Assembly: GCA_934149365.1 (NCBI GenBank)
Contig: CAKPEI010000001.1
Coordinates: 12,723-76,722, forward strand
Source of the DNA: an uncultured Clostridia bacterium
GTDB taxonomy: Bacteria > Bacillota > Clostridia > TANB77 > CAG-465
Direction: 5' to 3'
DNA length: 64,000 bases
Part shown: in pieces, positions 25,825 to 38,942 of the stretch
Layout of the letters: each line of letters begins with the position of its first letter
Position numbering within the stretch: position 1 is the stretch's first letter
Made by a program: the position numbers and the translations under genes
The notes under the pieces: model-generated
Told to the model about the DNA's origin: nothing
Databases searched by the model: none
Seen by the model: the letters and a program-made list of their open reading frames with translations, nothing else

Positions 25825-25866
25825 TATTACAATAAAATTACAAATAAAAAAATAACACAAAAAGTG

Positions 25867-25895
25867 TTGAAAAAAGTTTTAATATAAAGTAGAAT
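25867..25895 (+). promoter_or_regulatory. promoter TTGAAA-17-TAGAAT for leader ORF / family B gene (copy 3)
   Basis: Identical hexamers and spacing at 37455-37483. Confidence 0.5.
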
Positions 25896-25946
25896 AAAAA
25901 CGTAGAAAATAAAAAGAAAGAAAAAGAAAAGTAAAGAGGTGAAAAT

Positions 25947-26027
25947 ATGTTAACTAAAGAGCATGCAAACAGTATAACTCTAGAGAGAGAGAGAGAGAGA
26001 GAGAGAGCATACAATTTAAAAATATAG
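25947..26027 (+). CDS. leader peptide ORF MLTKEHANSITL(ER)4AYNLKI containing the (GA)13 tract
   Basis: RBS AAAGAGGTGAAAA. ATG 25947. Stop TAG 26025-26027. Confidence 0.5.
   Translation: MLTKEHANSITLERERERERAYNLKI
25982..26007 (+). repeat. dinucleotide microsatellite (ag)13 inside the leader ORF
   Basis: 26-nt perfect tract. Confidence 0.95.
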
Positions 26028-26108
26028 CTACAAAAGTAGCTGCGTTTTGCGTGCAGAAAATAAAAGAGAATAGTAATGTAAAAGAAGTTAGTTAGACAGA
26101 GTAGAAAG

Positions 26109-26130
26109 TATAGCTAGCTTTTTTGCGTTT
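26109..26130 (+). promoter_or_regulatory. conserved GTATAGCTAGCTTTTTTGCGTTTAA element (copy 3)
   Basis: See 2376-2400. Confidence 0.5.
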
Positions 26131-26235
26131 AACTAGAAAGTAAAACAAAAATTAATTAAGGTATAATCATGATAGTAAATCATGTAAATATACAAAAAGT
26201 TTTGTTCAAAAGAAAAAAATAAAGGGGGAAAAAAT

Positions 26236-27432
26236 ATGAGAACAAAAGTTAAACTAAAAGGCGGAATATCATTAATAGTATTAGTAATAACAATAATAGT
26301 AATGATAATACTAGCCGCAGCAATAATATTATCGCTATCAAACAGTGGAATAATAGGAAAGGCAAATAAAGCAAAGACAGATACAGACATATCAAATGCA
26401 AAAGACTTAGTGGCTATGGCTCATGCAGACTGGATGCTAGATGAGGCAAAGATAAAAGAGAACGATGATACAATAACATCATTTAGTAACTATGCAGAAA
26501 AGAAATTACAAGAAGCAGGATATAAAGTAGGAGCAGGAGAAGGAGCATATACAGTAACAGAAGATGGAGAAGTATATACAGGTCTAACAGAAACAGCAAG
26601 AGCAGGAATAACAGCAGGAATAAAAATAGGAGATGAAGTAAAGTATAATGCAGTACTAACAGCAAAAAGAACTACAACAGACGGAAGTGAACAAAGTTCA
26701 ACAGGAGCAGCAGATATTACGAAGAAACAAACAGTAAAAACAAATACAAGCTATACATGGAAATATATAGGATTAGGAGAAGATGGAAGTTTACTTATAG
26801 CGCCAGATATGACAGGGACAATAGGAGCAGACTATAAATTAATATTAGGATATAAAGGAGGTTATATAAATGGACCAAAAATGTTAAATACAATATGTGA
26901 TATTTTATATACAGTAGAGGGAAAAGGAAAAGCTCAAAGTATGAATATAGACATAGTAAACAAAATATTAGAATATAATGGACCAAAAGGAAGATACTAT
27001 GATGCAAGTAGTAATACAGTAGAAACAACAGAAGCAATGACAATAGCAGAATTGGAAACAAAATTTAATAGTAAATTAGCAAGAGATTATGTGCCAGAGG
27101 GGAAAGATTTAGGAGAATATAAATCAGACTATTATTACATAAACAAAACATACCATGCAAGCAGAATAACCAAAGATACAGTGAAACAAAATCTAGTATA
27201 TCAAGCAAATACATATTGGCTTGCTTCTCCGTGTGTCGATGCGAATTTGGACATCGGTTATGCGAGTTTCCATGTACGCTGCGTTAACTCTACTAGCGTG
27301 GACGCGACCAACATGTTCAATCCGTATGTCTCCGATAGTAGCTTTCCCTGCGCTGTCCGTCCGTATGTTTCTCTAACATCTAATGTCCAGAAAACAACAG
27401 AAAATGGAAAAACAGTATGGACATTAAGCTAG
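26236..27432 (+). CDS. secreted/surface protein: prepilin-like N-terminus plus C-terminal YWLASPCV domain with candidate variable region (family B, copy 1)
   Basis: RBS AAGGGGG. N-terminus MRTKVKLKGG|ISLIVLVITIIVMIILAAAIILSLS. 398 aa. Confidence 0.8.
   Translation: MRTKVKLKGGISLIVLVITIIVMIILAAAIILSLSNSGIIGKANKAKTDTDISNAKDLVAMAHADWMLDEAKIKENDDTITSFSNYAEKKLQEAGYKVGAGEGAYTVTEDGEVYTGLTETARAGITAGIKIGDEVKYNAVLTAKRTTTDGSEQSSTGAADITKKQTVKTNTSYTWKYIGLGEDGSLLIAPDMTGTIGADYKLILGYKGGYINGPKMLNTICDILYTVEGKGKAQSMNIDIVNKILEYNGPKGRYYDASSNTVETTEAMTIAELETKFNSKLARDYVPEGKDLGEYKSDYYYINKTYHASRITKDTVKQNLVYQANTYWLASPCVDANLDIGYASFHVRCVNSTSVDATNMFNPYVSDSSFPCAVRPYVSLTSNVQKTTENGKTVWTLS
27239..27372 (+). other. candidate DGR-type variable region (GC-rich, NNC-codon-rich 3' segment)
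   Basis: Composition shift (gcg, ccg, cgc, gac, gtc codons) in an otherwise AT-rich gene. Differences from paralogs fall at first/second codon positions. Confidence 0.45.
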
Positions 27433-27588
27433 GAACAAAACTATGAAAAATAGGCGCTTCTAAAAGTGTAAATCATATAGGTGTGCATAAAGTGCCTGAA
27501 TACAGATGTTTTAGTTGACACATTTAGTCATGTAGACAAACTCTATCGTCTATGAGGCTATTTTTATGATTAAATTTTTATGAAAATA

Positions 27589-27762
27589 TTGATAAATTTT
27601 TTAAAATGTGGTATATTAACACTACAGATTCAATATGCATATTGATATTTATAGCTAAATAGATTAGAATACCCTTGCTACAGTAGGGACTTAAAAAAGT
27701 AGGAGTATCCTTGCCAGAGTAGGAATTAGAAAAGTGATTGCCATAAAAGGTAGTCACTTTTT
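27589..27762 (+). ncRNA. candidate small RNA / structured leader: promoter TTGATA-17-TGgTATATT to a rho-independent terminator, with internal direct repeats CCTTGCYASAGTAGGRA
   Basis: Promoter at 27589-27617. Terminator hairpin agtgatt-N11-agtcact plus T5 at 27733-27762. No ORF. Confidence 0.35.
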
Positions 27763-27915
27763 AAAAGCAAAAATATAACTCAATTATAAATTTATAAATC
27801 ATAAGACTATCTTTTTACATATGTTACAACAATGTATATTTTTTGTAATTATTCTACAAAAAAGTATACATTGTTTTCTTTTTTTGATATAATGTATATG
27901 TAATAATGCGATGGA

Positions 27916-30132
27916 GTGATAAAGAAAATGTTTAAGGGTATATTTAAAAGAAGAAAGGTTGCATATGTAGGGCTCATGCTTGGCGCGTTTTGTGTGTTTG
28001 GTAAGTGTTATGCTGCAAGTTATGCGACTTCAACGATTTCAGATAGCTTCCCAGCAAGTTATCAATCATATATAAATAGATTAAAAAGTAGTCATCCTAA
28101 TTGGAATATTAAGGCTTTTTATACACATTTAGATTGGAATACAGTTCTTAATTCGGAGTCAAAAGGAACATATTCAAGAGTTCAAAATTCGGCATATGGT
28201 GATGCATGGAAAAGAACAGAAGCAGCAAATGATAGTTCATATAATGCAGCAGGTTTTGTACTTGCTTCAAGAGCTGCAGTAGCATATACATTGGACCCAA
28301 GGAACTTCTTAACAGATGAAGGAATATTTCAATTTAGGGTAATAGATAAAGATGTGGCTTCGGATACAGAAACTGCTGTAAAAGAAGTTGCACATAGTAC
28401 ACCAATGTACACAAATGATTATGCTAGTATTATAAAGAAAGTGGGAAATGATAAGAATATAGCTCCAACTTTTATAATATCAAGAATAAGACAAGAAACA
28501 GGTTGTGATACTGTAAATAACGGAAGTATAAATGGTAAAAACTCTAAATATCCTGGTTATTATAACTTCTTTAATATTGGAGCAAGAGATGGAAATGGAG
28601 CTGTACAAGCTGGTATAAATTTAGCACATACTAATGGATGGAATACACCAGAAAAAGCTATTGCAGGTGGAATGGACTGGCTAAACAAAAACTATGTTAA
28701 ATGGGGACAAAGTACAGTATATTTCCAAAAGTTTGATGTAGCAAACCCATATGGTAATGCAACAACGCTTCTTTCTATGCAGTATATGTCTAATATATCT
28801 GCACCAATGGGAGAGGCCAAAATTGCATATAAAGGAATTGAGAGGGCAGGTATATTAAATAACACATACACTTTCTATATTCCAATATATGATAATATGC
28901 CATCAATAGCTTCACCTAGTCCAACTATAGGGTACTATGAAAATGATAGCACAATGGTATATCTAGATGACCCAGATACAAATGATAGCTACGATACTTT
29001 TAAAATAAGGTCAACAGCGGACTCTTCTAGTTCTAGTAATGTAGTGTATACATTAAAAGAGTCTAGTGATATAAATAAAAAGACAGCAATGACAAGAATA
29101 AAAAAAGGCATTGATACTGGTTGGGACTATGTTGAGTTTGAAGTAAATGGTCAAAAGATAGAAGGCTATGTATGGAACTATTATGTATTTGAATATTCAT
29201 ATACTAAAGTAACAGCAATATCTTTAGATAGTGCAAACAAAACATTAAAAGTAGGCGATACTTTTAAACTTTCAGCTACAATAGAACCTTCAAATGCTAA
29301 ATTTAAGGATGTAACATGGAGTAGTTCAAATAATAACGTGTTAACAGTAGACAGTAATGGTAATGTTAAAGGAGTTGCAGCAGGTTCAGCTATTGTAACT
29401 GCTACAACAAAAGACCAACAAAAAACAGCTACATGCACAGTAACAGTTACTGATAAAGACCCAAGTATATCTTTAGATAAAACTAAATACAGTGTAGTGA
29501 GTGGAAAGTTAACACCTTTTAGTGTTGATATAGAATATACTGACGTGTCAGATTATGATGTGAAAATAGAGGATGAAAATATTGCTAAAATTCAAGATGG
29601 AAAAATATTAGGAGTTAAAGAAGGAACAACTAAATTAATTGTTACTTTAAAAGGAACTAATATAAAGGCAGAAGCAGAGATTAATGTAATTGAGATAAAA
29701 GAGGGAGATATAGTAATTGATAGTTCTTTAGATGTGAATAATGATGTTGTATCAAATATATCACCTGAAACAAAAGCACAAGATATAATTGGAAAAGTTC
29801 AATCTTCATACACAGTAGCATTAAAAAATAAATCAGGAGAAACATTAACAGGAGATGCTTGTGTTGGAACGGGAAGTAAAATTCAGATTTTAGATAATGC
29901 AGGTACGGTTATATATGAGTACACAGTTTTAATATATGGAGATGTAACTGGTGATGGTAAAATAACTTCAAAGGACTATATGGCAATTAAAAATCATATA
30001 ATGGGAACGGCTACAATTACAGGAATAGAAGCAAAAGCAGCAGACAGTTTTAGAGATAATAATATAACTTCAAAAGACTATATGATTATTAAAAATCATA
30101 TAATGGGAACATCTGTGATTAGTCAGAAATAA
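27916..30132 (+). CDS. secreted multidomain protein: GH73-like glucosaminidase (putative peptidoglycan hydrolase) domain, Big_2 Ig-like domains, C-terminal type I dockerin
   Basis: Signal peptide. RQETGCD...YNFFNIGA (GH73-like). Big_2 (VTWSSSNNNVLTVDSNGNVKGVAAGSAIVTATT). Dockerin repeats GDVTGDGKITSKDYMAIKNHIMG twice. 738 aa. Confidence 0.7.
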   Translation: MIKKMFKGIFKRRKVAYVGLMLGAFCVFGKCYAASYATSTISDSFPASYQSYINRLKSSHPNWNIKAFYTHLDWNTVLNSESKGTYSRVQNSAYGDAWKRTEAANDSSYNAAGFVLASRAAVAYTLDPRNFLTDEGIFQFRVIDKDVASDTETAVKEVAHSTPMYTNDYASIIKKVGNDKNIAPTFIISRIRQETGCDTVNNGSINGKNSKYPGYYNFFNIGARDGNGAVQAGINLAHTNGWNTPEKAIAGGMDWLNKNYVKWGQSTVYFQKFDVANPYGNATTLLSMQYMSNISAPMGEAKIAYKGIERAGILNNTYTFYIPIYDNMPSIASPSPTIGYYENDSTMVYLDDPDTNDSYDTFKIRSTADSSSSSNVVYTLKESSDINKKTAMTRIKKGIDTGWDYVEFEVNGQKIEGYVWNYYVFEYSYTKVTAISLDSANKTLKVGDTFKLSATIEPSNAKFKDVTWSSSNNNVLTVDSNGNVKGVAAGSAIVTATTKDQQKTATCTVTVTDKDPSISLDKTKYSVVSGKLTPFSVDIEYTDVSDYDVKIEDENIAKIQDGKILGVKEGTTKLIVTLKGTNIKAEAEINVIEIKEGDIVIDSSLDVNNDVVSNISPETKAQDIIGKVQSSYTVALKNKSGETLTGDACVGTGSKIQILDNAGTVIYEYTVLIYGDVTGDGKITSKDYMAIKNHIMGTATITGIEAKAADSFRDNNITSKDYMIIKNHIMGTSVISQK

Positions 30133-30151
30133 ATAATAGGAGGAATATATA

Positions 30152-31501
30152 ATGATTAAAAACAAAAGAATAAAATATTTATCAATATTTATGTTGATGT
30201 TTGTGTTTGCTATAACTAACTTTGTGTATGCAGCAGGAAGCTTTAGTGTAAGTGCTAACAAAACATCATTAAATCCTGGAAATACAGCAACTATAACAAT
30301 AAAGACAAATAATTGTGCAGGTAAGTTTAGTGTTTCATCATCAAATACTTCAGTTGCAACTGTATCTACAGGTTCAACTTGGGTAGATGGAACTGCTACA
30401 ATAACAGTAACAGCTAAAGCAAATGGAAGTGCTAATATAACGGTGACACCAGTTGATGTGTCTGATACAGACTTAAATGATGTTACTGGTAGTAAATCAG
30501 TTACTATAAAAGTAACAACACCTTCTAGTAATACAAATACTAACAAGCCAAGTAGTGGTAGCAATTCTAATAGTAATACAAACAAGAATAACAATAGCAA
30601 TAAAAATAATACAAGTTCAAAATCTTCAAATGCTAATCTTAAAAATATGATACTTAGTGTTGAAGGCCTTTCACCTGCATTTGCTAAAAATATCACATCG
30701 TATTCTCTAAAAGTTGGGGAAAATGTGGATACAATAAAGGTAAATGCTTCAGTTGAACATAATAGAGCTTCTTATTCAGTATCAGGTAATACTAATTTAA
30801 AAGTTGGAGAAAATATAATTACAGTAAAAGTAACAGCAGAAGATGGTACTGTAAAAACATATAAAATAACTGTACTTAAATCAGATGATCCAGTAAAATC
30901 TGATGCAACACTTTCTTCTGTTATAATTGAAGATGTAAATTTAGGGCAGGCATTTGACCCTAATGTTACTGAGTACAATGCAGGAGATATAACTGTTAAA
31001 TCAAGTAAGCTTAATATTTTAGCTTATCCAAATAATGATAATGCTAAAGTTGAAATATTAGGTAATGAAAATTTGGGCGTTGGTGAAGGAAAAATAACAA
31101 TAAGGGTTACATCTGAAAATGGAAAAGTAACTAAAGATTATGTAATAGCTTTTAACAAACTTTATGCAGAAACTAATGCAAACAATGTGGATATATATGG
31201 TGATTCTTTAAGAGCAAGAGAAAATAACAAACCATCATTTTGGTCAAAACTAAAAGATTGGTATGAAGCAAACTTAAAAGAACACATGACAGTTATTGTG
31301 CTATATGTATTTGTTTGGGTAGAATTTTTACAAGTAGTATATTTATATGAAAGATTAAGAAAATATGAAGATTTAGATAAAATAACTGTTGGTAAAAGAA
31401 TAAATAGAGAAGATAAAAAAGAAAAAGCTCCAAAGGAAGAAAAACCAAGAAGAGCAAAACAAAATCCTGTATTCCCTGAAGAAACAGAAAATAAAGAATA
31501 G
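30152..31501 (+). CDS. membrane-anchored partner protein: N-terminal Ig/cohesin-like domain, Ser/Asn/Thr linker, two cadherin-like beta-sandwich domains, C-terminal transmembrane anchor and charged tail
   Basis: Signal peptide. L..LS...G.LSP.F......Y...V cadherin-like repeats. C-terminal transmembrane segment IVLYVFVWVEFLQVVYLY then a KE-rich tail. 449 aa. Confidence 0.65.
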   Translation: MIKNKRIKYLSIFMLMFVFAITNFVYAAGSFSVSANKTSLNPGNTATITIKTNNCAGKFSVSSSNTSVATVSTGSTWVDGTATITVTAKANGSANITVTPVDVSDTDLNDVTGSKSVTIKVTTPSSNTNTNKPSSGSNSNSNTNKNNNSNKNNTSSKSSNANLKNMILSVEGLSPAFAKNITSYSLKVGENVDTIKVNASVEHNRASYSVSGNTNLKVGENIITVKVTAEDGTVKTYKITVLKSDDPVKSDATLSSVIIEDVNLGQAFDPNVTEYNAGDITVKSSKLNILAYPNNDNAKVEILGNENLGVGEGKITIRVTSENGKVTKDYVIAFNKLYAETNANNVDIYGDSLRARENNKPSFWSKLKDWYEANLKEHMTVIVLYVFVWVEFLQVVYLYERLRKYEDLDKITVGKRINREDKKEKAPKEEKPRRAKQNPVFPEETENKE

Positions 31502-31680: not shown

Positions 31681-33888
31681 ATGAATGAAAAAAGGGTAAT
31701 TAGTTTAAATAAAATGATAGCTTTAATATGTATGCTATGTACTTTTTTTATAGGAAGTAAAGTTTTTGCTGCAACTAAGAGTGTAGGAATAGATAGTTTT
31801 CCAAGTAGTTATCAAATATATTTAAAACAAATTCAAAAGCTCCATCCTAATTGGACATATACAGCACTAAATACGGGGATTGATTGGAATACGGTCATAA
31901 AAAACGAAGGACCTAGTGTAGATTTAAAAAGAAGTGCTATAGGAATTTCATTTGCTGATGTGTGGAAATGGAAAAATAGCAATGGTGCATATAATTTAAT
32001 AGAGCCAGGTTGGGTAACAGCATCTGAGCTTGCTGTGGCATATAGTATGGACCCAAGAAAATACATAAATGAAATGCAAATATTTCAGTTTGAAACTTTA
32101 AATTATGACTCTAGTGTCCAAAATCAAACAGGTGTAGAAAAGATATTTTATGGTACTTTAATGTACCAAAAAAATATCTCATATATAGATACAAATGGGA
32201 AAACTCAAACAATAAATAAAACGTATAGTAAAGTGGTAATGGAAGCTGCTGCAAAATATGGAGTAAGTCCATATCATTTAGCGTCTAGAATAAAACAAGA
32301 AACAGGTTGTGATATACAAAATAACACATCTATAAAAGGAAATGTGTCTGGCTATGTTGGACTATATAATTATTTTAATATAGGAGCAACGGGAGGAAGT
32401 AATCCTGCTATATCAGGACTTGCATATGCAAGAAGTGTAGGATGGACCACTCCGGAACTTGCAATAAATGGTGGTGCAGAGTTCTTATCTCAGAAATATA
32501 TAAATAAAGGGCAATATACTACATATTTGCAAAAATTTAATGTAAATGATAATAGTTCATATAGCTTATACACACATCAATATATGCAAAACATATTAGC
32601 TCCATCTTCTGAAGCTGTAAATACTCATAGTGCCTATTCTAAGATGGGTTTACTTGACATACCTTTTAATTTTGTAATACCAGTGTATGACAATATGCCA
32701 AACTTACCTGTAGATATATATACAGAAAATCCATCTGACTATGTGAAAGATAGCACAAAAGTGTATTGTACAAGTAATTTAAATATAAGGTCGGGAGCCG
32801 GAACTGGTAACAGTGCATTACTCACAGCACCTAAAGGCACAGTTATGACTAGAATAGCAAGAGGTGTTCAAGCAGGAGAAAGATGGGATAAAGTAAGGTT
32901 AGATACAGGACTTGAAGGTTATGTATTCCAGAGCTATATTAAAGAATGTTCATATACTAAGGTAACAGGTGTACAAATTAGCAGTGATGAAATTGATGTT
33001 GAAGTGGGAAAAGAGACTAGTCTAAAAGCAGAAGTATTACCAAGTAATGCTACATACAAAGATGTTACATGGAGTTCAAGTGATAGTAACATAGTAAGTG
33101 TAAGTCAAGACGGAAAAGTAACTGGAGTAAAAGAAGGTATGGCATATGTAACTGTTAAGAGTGATGACCAACTAAAAGAAGCAAGATGTGTTGTAAATGT
33201 AGTAAAGAAAAAAGAACCAAAACTAGAACTTGATAAAGATACATATATTGTTTTAAAAGGAAAGTCTACTAAACTTAATATAACTACATTAAATGTTGAT
33301 AACCCAGAGTATGAAATAGCTGTTCAAAATGAAGAAATTGCTAAAGTAGAAGAAAATAAAATATATGGAATAGAAGAAGGAGAGACAAATATAACAATAT
33401 CACTTGTAGGTACAACTCTAAAGGTTCAAGCTAAAGTTAAAGTAGTTGATATAAAAGAAGGAGAAATAAAAATTAATGAAAGTATAAAAGTAGAAGAAGA
33501 TATTATTAGTAAAATAGAACCAGAAACTACAATCTCAAGCATATTAGATAAAATTGAAACCTCATATGATGTGAAAGTAAAAGAGAAATCAGGAAAAAAT
33601 TTAGGTGAAAATGATATTGTTGGAACTGGAAGTAAAGTTCAGATTTTAGATAGTGCAGGTGCGGTAATATATGAGTATACAGTTTTAATATATGGAGATG
33701 TGACTGGTGACGGAAAAATAACGTCAAAGGATTATATGGCAATTAAAAATCATATAATGGAAACAAGCAGGTTAAATAAAATAGAACAAAAAGCAGCAGA
33801 TAGTTTTAAAGATGGCAATATAACCTCAAAGGATTATATGATAATAAAAAATTACATAATGGGTGTAAGTAAAATAAATCAAGAGTAA
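31681..33888 (+). CDS. second GH73-like/Big_2/dockerin secreted protein (paralog of 27916..30132)
   Basis: 735 aa. Same domain order. Dockerin GDVTGDGKITSKDYMAIKNHIME...DGNITSKDYMIIKNYIMG. Confidence 0.7.
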   Translation: MNEKRVISLNKMIALICMLCTFFIGSKVFAATKSVGIDSFPSSYQIYLKQIQKLHPNWTYTALNTGIDWNTVIKNEGPSVDLKRSAIGISFADVWKWKNSNGAYNLIEPGWVTASELAVAYSMDPRKYINEMQIFQFETLNYDSSVQNQTGVEKIFYGTLMYQKNISYIDTNGKTQTINKTYSKVVMEAAAKYGVSPYHLASRIKQETGCDIQNNTSIKGNVSGYVGLYNYFNIGATGGSNPAISGLAYARSVGWTTPELAINGGAEFLSQKYINKGQYTTYLQKFNVNDNSSYSLYTHQYMQNILAPSSEAVNTHSAYSKMGLLDIPFNFVIPVYDNMPNLPVDIYTENPSDYVKDSTKVYCTSNLNIRSGAGTGNSALLTAPKGTVMTRIARGVQAGERWDKVRLDTGLEGYVFQSYIKECSYTKVTGVQISSDEIDVEVGKETSLKAEVLPSNATYKDVTWSSSDSNIVSVSQDGKVTGVKEGMAYVTVKSDDQLKEARCVVNVVKKKEPKLELDKDTYIVLKGKSTKLNITTLNVDNPEYEIAVQNEEIAKVEENKIYGIEEGETNITISLVGTTLKVQAKVKVVDIKEGEIKINESIKVEEDIISKIEPETTISSILDKIETSYDVKVKEKSGKNLGENDIVGTGSKVQILDSAGAVIYEYTVLIYGDVTGDGKITSKDYMAIKNHIMETSRLNKIEQKAADSFKDGNITSKDYMIIKNYIMGVSKINQE

Positions 33889-33902
33889 AGGAGAAAAAAG
33901 AA

Positions 33903-35126
33903 ATGAAAATTAACAAATTAAATTATTTAAGAATATTTGCTATTCTTCTAGTATTTTTTGTAGTAAGCAAGGTGCAAGCTGCGGGAACATTTAGTGTAAG
34001 CACAAACAAAACATCTTTAAAGCCAGGAGAAACTGCAACAGTTACAATAAAAACTAATAACTGTGCTGGAAAATTCGGAATAAGTTCATCTAACACTGGA
34101 GTTTTAACAGTATCTACAGGTTCAACTTGGGTAGATGGAACAGTAACAGTTACAGTAACTGCAAAAGCTAATGGAACAGCTAGTATATCAGTAAACCCAA
34201 TTGATGTATCAGATAATGATTTAAATGATGTAAAGGGAAGTAAATCAGTTAGTATAAAAGTAGCAACTCCACAAACTACTACCACTCCAAGTACGTCTGG
34301 CACTACAGGAAGTAATAAAACTACGGGAACAACTAAACCTTCTACTAGTAAAACTAGTACTACTACAAAATCAGTAAGCAATAATGCGTATTTAAAAGAA
34401 TTTCGAGTTGATAGACCTGGCATTTCACCTAGTTTTAACAAAAATACATTTAACTATTCTATTACAGTTGATGAAAGTGTAGATAAACTAAATGTAACTG
34501 CAGTTCCAGAAAACAGTAAGGCAAGTGTTAGTATAACCGGAAACACTGGTTTAAAAACAGGTGATAATGTTATAACGGTAAAGGTTGTAGCAGAAGATAA
34601 AAAAACAAGTAAAGTGTATAAAATATTTGTAACAAAAGCAGATGATGAAGCAAAATCTAATGCGTATTTACAAAACCTAATAGTATCAAATATGACACTA
34701 ACACCAGAATTTTCTAAAGAAATTTTTGAATATAGTTTAGGAGACATTTCATATGATGTGGAAAAACTTGAAATATCTGCATTTCCAGTTAATGAAAAAG
34801 CTAAAGTTGAAATAACTGGAAACGATAAACTTGTGGTTAATGAAAATACTATAAAAATAACAGTAACATCTGAAAACTCTAAAGTTCAAAAGGTATATAC
34901 ATTAAAGGTAAACAAAAAAGAGGGTGTAAGTAAAGAAGAAAACAAGCAATTGGAGAGTAAGGAAGAGGAAAGTATGCTTGTTGATAAGTGGTCCAATATT
35001 AAAATAGCATTGAAGGAAAAAGCCCCTATACTTTGGTTATATGCTTTTGTTTGGGTAGAATTTTTACAAGTAGTATATCTATATGAAAAGCTTAAGAAAA
35101 AAGATGATGTAACTCATATAAAATAA
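33903..35126 (+). CDS. second membrane-anchored cohesin-like/cadherin-like partner protein (paralog of 30152..31501)
   Basis: 407 aa. Same architecture and the same C-terminal transmembrane motif FVWVEFLQVVYLYEKL. Confidence 0.65.
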   Translation: MKINKLNYLRIFAILLVFFVVSKVQAAGTFSVSTNKTSLKPGETATVTIKTNNCAGKFGISSSNTGVLTVSTGSTWVDGTVTVTVTAKANGTASISVNPIDVSDNDLNDVKGSKSVSIKVATPQTTTTPSTSGTTGSNKTTGTTKPSTSKTSTTTKSVSNNAYLKEFRVDRPGISPSFNKNTFNYSITVDESVDKLNVTAVPENSKASVSITGNTGLKTGDNVITVKVVAEDKKTSKVYKIFVTKADDEAKSNAYLQNLIVSNMTLTPEFSKEIFEYSLGDISYDVEKLEISAFPVNEKAKVEITGNDKLVVNENTIKITVTSENSKVQKVYTLKVNKKEGVSKEENKQLESKEEESMLVDKWSNIKIALKEKAPILWLYAFVWVEFLQVVYLYEKLKKKDDVTHIK

Positions 35127-37675: not shown

Positions 37676-37699
37676 TGTATAGCTAGCTTTTTTGCATTT
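37676..37699 (+). promoter_or_regulatory. conserved TGTATAGCTAGCTTTTTTGCATTTAA element (copy 4)
   Basis: See 2376-2400. Confidence 0.5.
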
Positions 37700-37772
37700 A
37701 AAGCAAGGTATAATCATTGCATTAAGCAATGTTAATATACAAATTAAGTTTTATATGAAATGGGAGGTAAAA

Positions 37773-38942
37773 ATGATGAAAAACTTAAGAAAAAACAAAA
37801 GCGGAATATCACTGATAGTATTAGTAATAACAATAATAGTAATGATAATACTAGCAGCCGCAATAATACTATCACTATCAAATAGTGGAATAATATCAAA
37901 AGCAAACAAAGCCAAAACAGATAGTGATACAGCAAATTTAAAAGAGTATGTAAATACACTAAGAGCAGAATGGGAGTTAATGACAGCAGAAAAACAGGCA
38001 GAAGAAGGTTCATTTGTAGATTATGCAAATTCAAAGTTAGCTGAGAAAGGTTATAAAGTAATGCTATCAGATGACGGAGTACTAATGAATGAAGCAGCGA
38101 CAGCTGCAGTAAAAGCAGGAATAAAAGTAGGAGATACAGTAACAGGGTATACATTGGATGTGGCTACATATACAACAGACGGAAGTGAGAATACATGTGA
38201 TGCAAAAAAACAAGAAGAAACAGATCCACAACCACAAGAAGTAACAGCAAATACGCAGCTAAGATGGAAATACTTAGGAGTAAATGCAAATGGAGAACTA
38301 GAAATAATGGCAGATTTAGGAACAACAGAAGTTGCAGCAAATACAAAAGTAACATTAGGCGGAAAAGGTGGTTATTTAAAAGGACCAGATATGTTAAATA
38401 CAATATGTGAAAAATTATATTCAAAAGATGGAGTAGGAACAGCAAGAAATATGAATATAGATGATGTAAATAATATATTGGGTTATATAGGAGAAAAGGG
38501 ATCATATTACTATATTGATGACGAGTACACACCAACTAAAGAAGCAAAAACAATAGCTACGTTAGAAAGCGAATTAGGAATGACATTAGATGGTAGAACA
38601 ACACCAGATGGAAAAGACTTAGGAATGTACTATTTAGATTATTACAATATAAGTAGAACAGATGATGTAAAAAAGATGAAAAAACCAGGGAATGTGGATT
38701 TAGTATACAATGCTAAAAATGAATACTGGCTTGCTTCTCCGTGTGTCTCTGCAATGTTCTTCGGCAACATGGCGACTTTCAGTGTTCGCTATGTTAACTC
38801 TGCTGCTGTGGGCGGGAACGGCGTGTTTAGTTCGTATGACTACTTTGCCGGCCATACTTATGCGGTCCGCCCTGTAGTAACTTTAAATTCTAATGTTAAA
38901 TTAACACCAAATGCAGATAAAACAGAGTGGGGAATAAGTTAG
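37773..38942 (+). CDS. secreted/surface protein: prepilin-like N-terminus plus YWLASPCV C-terminal domain with candidate variable region (family B, copy 2)
   Basis: ATG 37773 after RBS GGGAGG. The ORF-track start 37692 runs through the RBS. N-terminus MMKNLRKNKSG|ISLIVLVITIIVMIILAAAIILSLS. Confidence 0.8.
   Translation: MMKNLRKNKSGISLIVLVITIIVMIILAAAIILSLSNSGIISKANKAKTDSDTANLKEYVNTLRAEWELMTAEKQAEEGSFVDYANSKLAEKGYKVMLSDDGVLMNEAATAAVKAGIKVGDTVTGYTLDVATYTTDGSENTCDAKKQEETDPQPQEVTANTQLRWKYLGVNANGELEIMADLGTTEVAANTKVTLGGKGGYLKGPDMLNTICEKLYSKDGVGTARNMNIDDVNNILGYIGEKGSYYYIDDEYTPTKEAKTIATLESELGMTLDGRTTPDGKDLGMYYLDYYNISRTDDVKKMKKPGNVDLVYNAKNEYWLASPCVSAMFFGNMATFSVRYVNSAAVGGNGVFSSYDYFAGHTYAVRPVVTLNSNVKLTPNADKTEWGIS
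38748..38880 (+). other. candidate DGR-type variable region
   Basis: 16 of ~41 codons are NNC. GC-rich patch. Confidence 0.45.

Follow-up and report, generated by a model that had tools for sequence, protein, structure and literature searches.

A probable toxI antitoxin array without its toxN toxin gene in a gut Clostridia species

The best-studied ToxI antitoxin RNAs are those of P. atrosepticum pECA1039, with 5.5 repeats of 36 nt, and of B. thuringiensis pAW63, with 2.9 repeats of 34 nt. In a complete ToxIN type III toxin-antitoxin (TA) locus, a single promoter drives the repeat array and a terminator passes only a fraction of transcription into toxN (PMC5086642, PMC3401426). ToxN is an endoribonuclease which cuts the precursor at A-rich junctions, and the pseudoknot repeats freed in this way bind and inhibit the toxin (PMC5086642, PMC3401426). 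Repeats of this kind are also known from phage: a pseudo-ToxI has been described in escape mutants of the Pectobacterium phage phiTE (Blower et al. 2012, via PMC5086642), and it acts in trans on ToxN made elsewhere. Published surveys of type III systems begin from the toxin protein (PMC3401426, PMC5086642), and orphan toxI arrays are therefore invisible to them. No description of orphan type III RNA antitoxins was found in the type III TA literature examined. A parallel is nevertheless offered by orphan type II antitoxins, in which the antitoxin gene outlasts the toxin and might guard the host against toxins of mobile elements; these antitoxins are proteins, whereas the element described here would be an RNA. 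For type II antitoxins, an 'anti-addiction' role of chromosomal ccd was reportedly put forward by Saavedra De Bast and colleagues in 2008.

The element lies on the + strand at 27589-27762 of the window, the whole 64,000-nucleotide stretch of DNA that was analysed, within a 496-nt intergenic gap between a 398-aa gene on the 5' side and a Big_2/dockerin gene on the 3' side. It shares with ToxI (Rfam family RF02519) the succession of a promoter, tandem repeats of 34-37 nt with A-rich junctions and a Rho-independent terminator, together with a predicted hairpin and pseudoknot pairing inside each unit. Moreover, it is homologous to arrays preceding ToxN genes of the PF13958 family, and toxN occupies the same site in conspecifics. 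It differs from ToxIN in that the window has no toxin gene, the array has only 2.0 units and two of its three A-rich junctions are interrupted, and it differs from RF02519 in scoring below the gathering threshold, as does the whole gut-Clostridia/Bacilli clade. With the phage pseudo-ToxI it has in common the presence of ToxI-like repeats without an adjoining toxN. However, pseudo-ToxI is phage-borne and consists of a short viral repeat expanded under selection, whereas the window element is chromosomal and derives from a complete locus by deletion of toxN. A scan of viral contigs with the repeat core gave two doubtful matches (48 nt and 47 nt, with different periods) and no convincing phage copy.

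From the sequence comparisons set out below, the unit is very probably the toxI antitoxin gene of a ToxIN type III TA locus. The full reading, in which a toxI gene composed of a promoter, two 36-nt pseudoknot-forming repeats and a terminator has had its toxN partner deleted in this strain, is given a probability of about 0.88. The features of this putative gene are as follows.

27589-27617, + strand: toxI array promoter, sigma-70-like with an extended -10 (consensus scan 10/12 plus TG); -35 TTGATA at 27589-27594, spacer of 17 nt, TGn at 27609-27611, -10 TATATT at 27612-27617.
27618-27660, + strand: toxI transcript leader, 43 nt, from alignments to L041, L080, L034, L022 and L178/L181.
27661-27696, + strand: ToxI unit 1, 36 nt, AGAUUAGAAUACCCUUGCUACAGUAGGGACUUAAAA; hairpin CCCU/AGGG; pseudoknot pair A6-U19.
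27697-27732, + strand: ToxI unit 2, 36 nt, AAGUAGGAGUAUCCUUGCCAGAGUAGGAAUUAGAAA; hairpin UCCU/AGGA; pseudoknot pair G6-C19.
27729-27762, + strand: Rho-independent terminator, stem GUGAUUGCC / GGUAGUCAC, loop AUAAAA, U5.

The extended -10 promoter (TTGATA-17-TGgTATATT) had already been proposed in a sequence-only reading of this stretch, and its position proves to be conserved in homologues. Promoter-like sites are not in excess in this AT-rich stretch (9 seen against 9.0 expected from shuffles), so the weight of the call rests on that conservation: the layout of the -35 and -10 elements and the distance to the array are identical in the homologous arrays L080, L034, L178 and L181. Among the six deletion haplotypes of the species, the hexamers and the TG are constant and variation is confined to bases of the spacer. 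Transcription of toxI would be expected to start near 27624. The leader of the window has diverged and is ~23 nt shorter than that of toxN-bearing alleles; no other segment varies as much between conspecific haplotypes, 1-nt and 6-nt indels included. A second promoter-like match within it (27642-27670, TTGATA-17-TAGAAT, 10/12), overlapping the start of unit 1, is probably a chance product of AT-rich sequence.

The terminator recognised in the same reading also holds. Its core stem has 9 bp (27734-27742 / 27749-27757) and can be lengthened to 14 bp (27729-27762); T5 follows, and the RNAfold energy is -17.9 kcal/mol. A simple consensus terminator scanner called no terminator at the unit; folding does reveal one. 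Homologous terminators occur in L041, L022, L034, L080, L178 and L181, and strain variants of the stem (A>G and U>C) keep the pairing, A-U becoming G-U and U-G becoming C-G. Over a stretch of 143 nt the predicted fold is more stable than all of 200 dinucleotide shuffles (z = -4.2). The unit had been described as devoid of ORFs, and indeed none is conserved: the sole frame is one of 59 aa on the minus strand (27578-27757). A coding reading of this frame was rejected, since a 1-nt leader indel in the conspecific contigs L175, L179 and L183 breaks it.

The direct repeats, which form the functional core of the RNA, are two in number, as previously noted; the repeat unit, however, is 36 nt long and not ~24 nt. 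The core, CCTTGCnnnAGTAGG, is found at 27673-27687 in unit 1 and at 27709-27723 in unit 2, head to tail and in exact register. Shuffling the window 100 times never produced this two-core pattern. The two-unit array is missing from the output of Tandem Repeats Finder. The supposed third AGTAGGAG half-copy is the 5' part of unit 2 (AAGUAGGAG), that is, the strand predicted to pair with the loop in the pseudoknot, and does not constitute a separate repeat. Unit 1 is invariant in 12 of 12 deletion-allele sequences (the window and 11 contigs), and in unit 2 a G interrupts the 3' A-run.

Pairing within the units is supported by covariation among 81 distinct family units. Positions 12 and 28 of the hairpin are paired in every unit, as CG in 68 and as UA in 13; the pseudoknot pair 6-19, joining the 5' tail to the loop, is GC in 68, AU in 9 and CG in one. 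The covariation score was reached in 0 of 500 shuffles. The two units of the window themselves illustrate both alternatives, unit 1 pairing C-G at 12-28 and A-U at 6-19, and unit 2 U-A and G-C. The pattern observed at 6-19 fits a pseudoknot.

A scan with Rfam at the gathering threshold found nothing across the region. In a permissive scan, the repeats matched only ToxI (RF02519), as two adjacent matches with a 36-nt period, scoring 16.1 bits for unit 1 and 21.8 bits for unit 2 against a gathering threshold of 50 bits. Such sub-threshold scores are uninformative for this clade, because units adjoining a genuine toxN also fall short (21.5 bits in L047, 26.5 bits in L181). The ToxI units of B. 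thuringiensis are below the threshold as well, at 45 and 33 bits. Unit 2 is ~70% identical to the Rfam ToxI consensus.

A degenerate two-core pattern was searched against one genome per species and returned 86 loci, mostly in MAGs of gut Clostridia, Bacilli and 'Tenericutes', with further loci in Fusobacteriaceae and Bacillus thuringiensis; the comparison sequences are mostly metagenome assemblies. Five of these loci (L003, L016, L051, L059 and L082) were left out because the repeats matched there are unrelated to the family. Because the search pattern derives from the core of the window itself, there is some circularity in the conservation of that core, and independent evidence comes only from linkage to ToxN, homology of the flanks and the covarying positions. 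Arrays of the family have a period of 35-37 nt and 2-4 copies, and a terminator comes next in most loci. An intact ORF of ~165 aa follows ~60 nt past the terminator in 52 arrays; the two such ORFs checked in Pfam are both PF13958 ToxN_toxin (E 1e-39 and 1e-31). A ToxN HMM built from the 52 ORFs was used to classify the 71 assessable genuine arrays. An intact toxN is present in 52/71. In 4/71, all from Fusobacteriaceae, there is a longer ORF with a weakly ToxN-like N-terminus fused to a Fic domain. In 8/71, toxN is broken by a TAA nonsense codon, a frameshift or truncation, and 7/71 have no toxN, the next gene being unrelated (pgsA-like, SleB-like, EngB, RarA-like or topoisomerase-like).

The window unit aligns from promoter to terminator with arrays L041, L080, L022 and L034 (blastn E down to 8e-35). 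A covariance model, R1, was trained solely on 79 distinct units adjoining an intact toxN. A search of this kind had been suggested by the sequence-only reading; it recovers exactly two units in the window, at 49.1 bits (E 1e-5) for unit 1 and 42.0 bits (E 1e-4) for unit 2, the next best match reaching 15.8 bits (64-kb window, 128 kb of search space). The family that it identifies is ToxI and not a new sRNA. Of the earlier proposal of a small RNA, what stands is a non-coding RNA gene of ~140 nt, self-contained in that promoter and terminator are both part of the unit; its novelty does not, the array being apparently of ToxI type.

A toxin gene was sought next to the array and throughout the window. 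There is no ORF at 27763-27927, between the terminator and the dockerin gene, and tblastn with 56 ToxN proteins detected no ToxN homologue in the 64-kb window (best E 0.012). This best match, at 60860-61096, was discarded, as it lies inside a spore photoproduct lyase gene. As the search for a toxin ORF was negative, the element is classed as an orphan toxI and not as a complete type III TA system.

Conspecific contigs (n = 14) were retrieved through exact and near-exact variants of the neighbouring proteins. The cluster of the dockerin protein comprises 22 variants, of which the two most frequent are found on 24 and 18 contigs. An exact look-up of the 398-aa upstream protein gave no match, its C-terminus probably being strain-variable. 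The alleles at the site are the following.

L178: array, terminator, ribosome-binding site and toxN present; a CAA>TAA stop shortens the protein by its 16 C-terminal residues, the conserved FxLLEEK stretch among them.
L181 and L182: toxN frameshifted by a 2-nt insertion near codon 33.
Window and 11 contigs: ~590 nt absent, comprising the ribosome-binding site and the entire toxN.
27758-27787 of the window, + strand: deletion scar, right junction AATTATAAATTT (27782), from global alignment of the window with L181.

In L178, a called ToxN_toxin gene (PF13958) stands at the site; the ToxN HMM matches L178, L181 and L182 and gives 0 matches in the deletion alleles. The two-unit array is thus kept in 15 of 15 sequences (the window and the 14 contigs), and toxN is damaged or gone in the same 15 of 15. 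The sequence-only reading had let its case depend on the recurrence of the repeats in related strains, and they are kept in 14 of 14 conspecific contigs. On the comparison of these alleles, toxN is judged to have been inactivated at least three separate times in this lineage, after entry of the locus. The closest relatives in other species are also decaying, with a nonsense codon in L034, a truncated toxN in L022 and complete loss of toxN in L041. At the sequence level, the RNA-coding half of the locus in the window is structurally intact and the toxin half is gone.

Comparison with sister species indicates how the locus was acquired.

25825-27825, + strand: ~2-kb insertion relative to the sister species, holding the 398-aa prepilin-like, VR-like gene (26236-27432) and the toxI(N) locus.

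In the sister species (L171, L172/L173), whose dockerin orthologues are 72% and 67% identical, a distance of 109 nt separates the PGA_cap gene from the dockerin gene downstream, and the promoter of the latter carries the palindrome seen in the window; neither the array nor the 398-aa gene is present. The absence of both from the sisters indicates that the toxIN locus came into the lineage within the ~2-kb insertion. The dockerin gene of the window starts at ATG 27928, 165 nt 3' of the unit and on the same strand. A 17-nt inverted repeat (27828-27844 / 27859-27875) overlaps the -35 element of its promoter (TATACA-17-TATAAT with TG; 27828-27893) and is near-invariant in the sister species, where protein identity is just 67-74%. 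This inverted repeat is probably the operator of some regulator. Further downstream, a gene pair encoding a Big_2/dockerin protein of ~735 aa and then a cadherin-like protein of ~410-450 aa is duplicated in tandem (27928-31501 / 31681-35126), an arrangement kept in the sister species.

The other gene of the insertion, the 398-aa gene at 26236-27432, has a prepilin-like N-terminus, no Pfam match and an A-poor, GC-rich 3' end, and its C-terminal part is strongly diverged in strain L175. It is one of three paralogues in the window with a prepilin-like N-terminus and no Pfam match (26236-27432, 37692-38942 and 53765-54901). They have in common a GC-rich, A-poor 3' segment of ~180 nt (27220-27400 matches that at 38730 at 114/181 positions and that at 54683 at 90/181), which looks like the variable regions (VR) of DGRs. 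A (GA)n microsatellite of ~14 repeats is present near 25983-26010, within a short ORF (25921-26010). Around its ribosome-binding site and start, this ORF repeats 39 nt of the corresponding region of the 398-aa gene (26210-26248) at 72% identity, as if it were what is left of a further pilin-like gene start.

As to the present status of the array, the window promoter would still fire and give a ~140-nt RNA, ending at the 27762 terminator and having no partner in cis. This RNA would presumably remain unprocessed unless the cell makes ToxN elsewhere. Loss of toxN is harmless and prior loss of toxI would be lethal, so that the antitoxin outlives the toxin, and the array would be an evolutionary leftover of toxin loss. 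On the sequence evidence, such a still-transcribed relic is the most likely status of the array, and the odds are somewhat in favour of an orphan array that has no current function. Several signs of decay are in keeping with this. Unit 2 has the lowest score of the 71 units scored with R1 (42.0 bits, against 58.8 bits for its counterpart in the toxN-bearing allele) and has changed at two positions where conservation within the family is 90% or higher. The A-runs 5' of unit 1 and 3' of unit 2 are interrupted, only the central junction, at 27691-27698, being intact, and ~23 nt have been lost from the leader. The same facts weigh against the idea that the RNA is a functional orphan antitoxin, kept by selection for its ability to neutralise ToxN from another copy, a plasmid or a phage, since unit 2 has drifted at near-invariant positions and two of the three presumed processing sites are disrupted. 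Moreover, the pairing of ToxI with ToxN is highly cognate-specific (PMC5086642), and a partner toxin is absent within the 64 kb. It is nevertheless true that the array is found in 15 of 15 conspecific sequences in spite of a dead or missing toxN. Among the six deletion haplotypes, 10 variant events are counted over the promoter spacer, leader and terminator (102 nt together), whereas the units (72 nt) have none, giving (102/174)^10, or p ~0.005, if the events are independent; the test is weaker if they are linked, as they possibly are, and the events are few. The promoter hexamers, the TG, the pairings of both units and the terminator stem are all intact, changes in the terminator being pairing-preserving. 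In addition, the orphan arrays L004, L023, L029, L041, L056 and L081 score as high as arrays with an intact toxN and share the array alone, their flanks and genomic contexts being unrelated. Several ToxIN loci per genome have been documented (PMC3401426), as is also the case here for L037, L050, L074, L019 and L042, and the phage pseudo-ToxI indicates that repeats by themselves are active in trans (PMC5086642). A trans-acting role retains some likelihood because the units are invariant among the six deletion haplotypes; overall, it is considered possible but rather unlikely. By analogy with the systems cited above, an array acting in this way would be an anti-addiction or immunity element, an interpretation held just as tentatively.

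Two further explanations take the unit out of the type III context. It could control the dockerin/Big_2 cluster downstream, either as an independent small RNA with a regulatory role or as a transcriptional leader or attenuator, given that the unit and the dockerin gene share a strand, with 165 nt between them, and that read-through of the terminator could add to transcription of that gene. However, a promoter of its own precedes the dockerin gene, with an inverted repeat that is conserved in sister species devoid of the array, and in L178 and L181 a toxN of 590 nt separates the array from it. The repeats are absent, and there is no synteny, at 80 metagenomic loci with relatives of the dockerin protein (28-47% identical), which served as a negative control, and Rfam cis-regulatory families gave no match at a meaningful score. 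The riboregulatory leader of the sequence-only reading must therefore be considered very improbable. An element acting at the DNA level is less credible still. Such an element, either a set of AGTAGG sites for a regulator or a DGR template repeat or homing signal, would account for intergenic direct repeats beside a gene with an A-poor, VR-like 3' end. In the repeats, the changes are compensatory (CG/UA and GC/AU), in the manner of RNA pairing and unlike those of a DNA motif, and AGTAGG, previously suggested to be bound by a regulator, corresponds to the 3' strand of the covariation-supported RNA hairpin in the ToxI units. The repeats also adjoin toxN in dozens of genomes without a VR-like gene, and the VR-like segment at 27220-27400 matches those at 38730 and 54683 and not the unit. 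A role as DGR component was rejected on this lack of similarity and because no reverse transcriptase domain was found among the neighbouring ORFs checked; the tie to the adjoining DGR-like gene appears incidental.

The element type, ToxI, is already known; it is the orphan state that is informative. An unexplained sRNA candidate becomes an identified element, in a place where an annotation pipeline would leave the RNA gene unlabelled, the Rfam ToxI model at its gathering threshold missing the entire clade. Persistence of a type III RNA antitoxin after loss of its toxin is seen here within one gut Clostridia species, in which toxN is nonsense-mutated, frameshifted or absent and toxI is always kept. 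In the family as a whole, ~10% of arrays are without any toxN, and in about one in five toxN is broken or missing. It may be asked whether orphan ToxI arrays form a maintained class of chromosomal 'immunity' RNAs against plasmid, phage or paralogous ToxN; this is doubtful, and somewhat more so than a role for the present array. If it were true, the species of the window would be a natural test case, with three independent toxN lesions and a universal array, and functional orphans would amount to RNA-based anti-addiction or anti-abortive-infection elements. If the orphans are non-functional, they provide a clean natural series for measuring the speed of TA locus decay.

Other loci of the family deserve mention. 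The orphan array closest to that of the window, L041, has a Fic/DOC gene directly on its 5' side. In Fusobacteriaceae/Cetobacterium MAGs (L030:2889-4100, L044, L071 and L083), a ToxI-like 36-nt array and terminator precede an ORF of 342-365 aa, the N-terminus of which is weakly ToxN-like (14 bits with the ToxN HMM) and the C-terminus Fic/DOC (PF02661, E 3e-11). Its domain matches suggest a possible type III variant in which ToxN is fused to Fic. In Bacillus thuringiensis strain s1930 (L079:6323-6440), two ToxI units (Rfam scores of 45 and 33 bits) and a terminator are followed by a Toprim/topoisomerase-like ORF and no toxN, an orphan in the very species in which ToxIN_Bt was characterised. Finally, gut Bacilli MAGs (L037, L050, L074, L019 and L042) contain two complete ToxIN loci in tandem, ~700 nt apart. 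One has 36-nt and the other 35-nt repeats in 4 of the 5 cases, both being of 36 nt in L019, suggesting from sequence comparison that these are duplicated systems with diverged antitoxin specificity.
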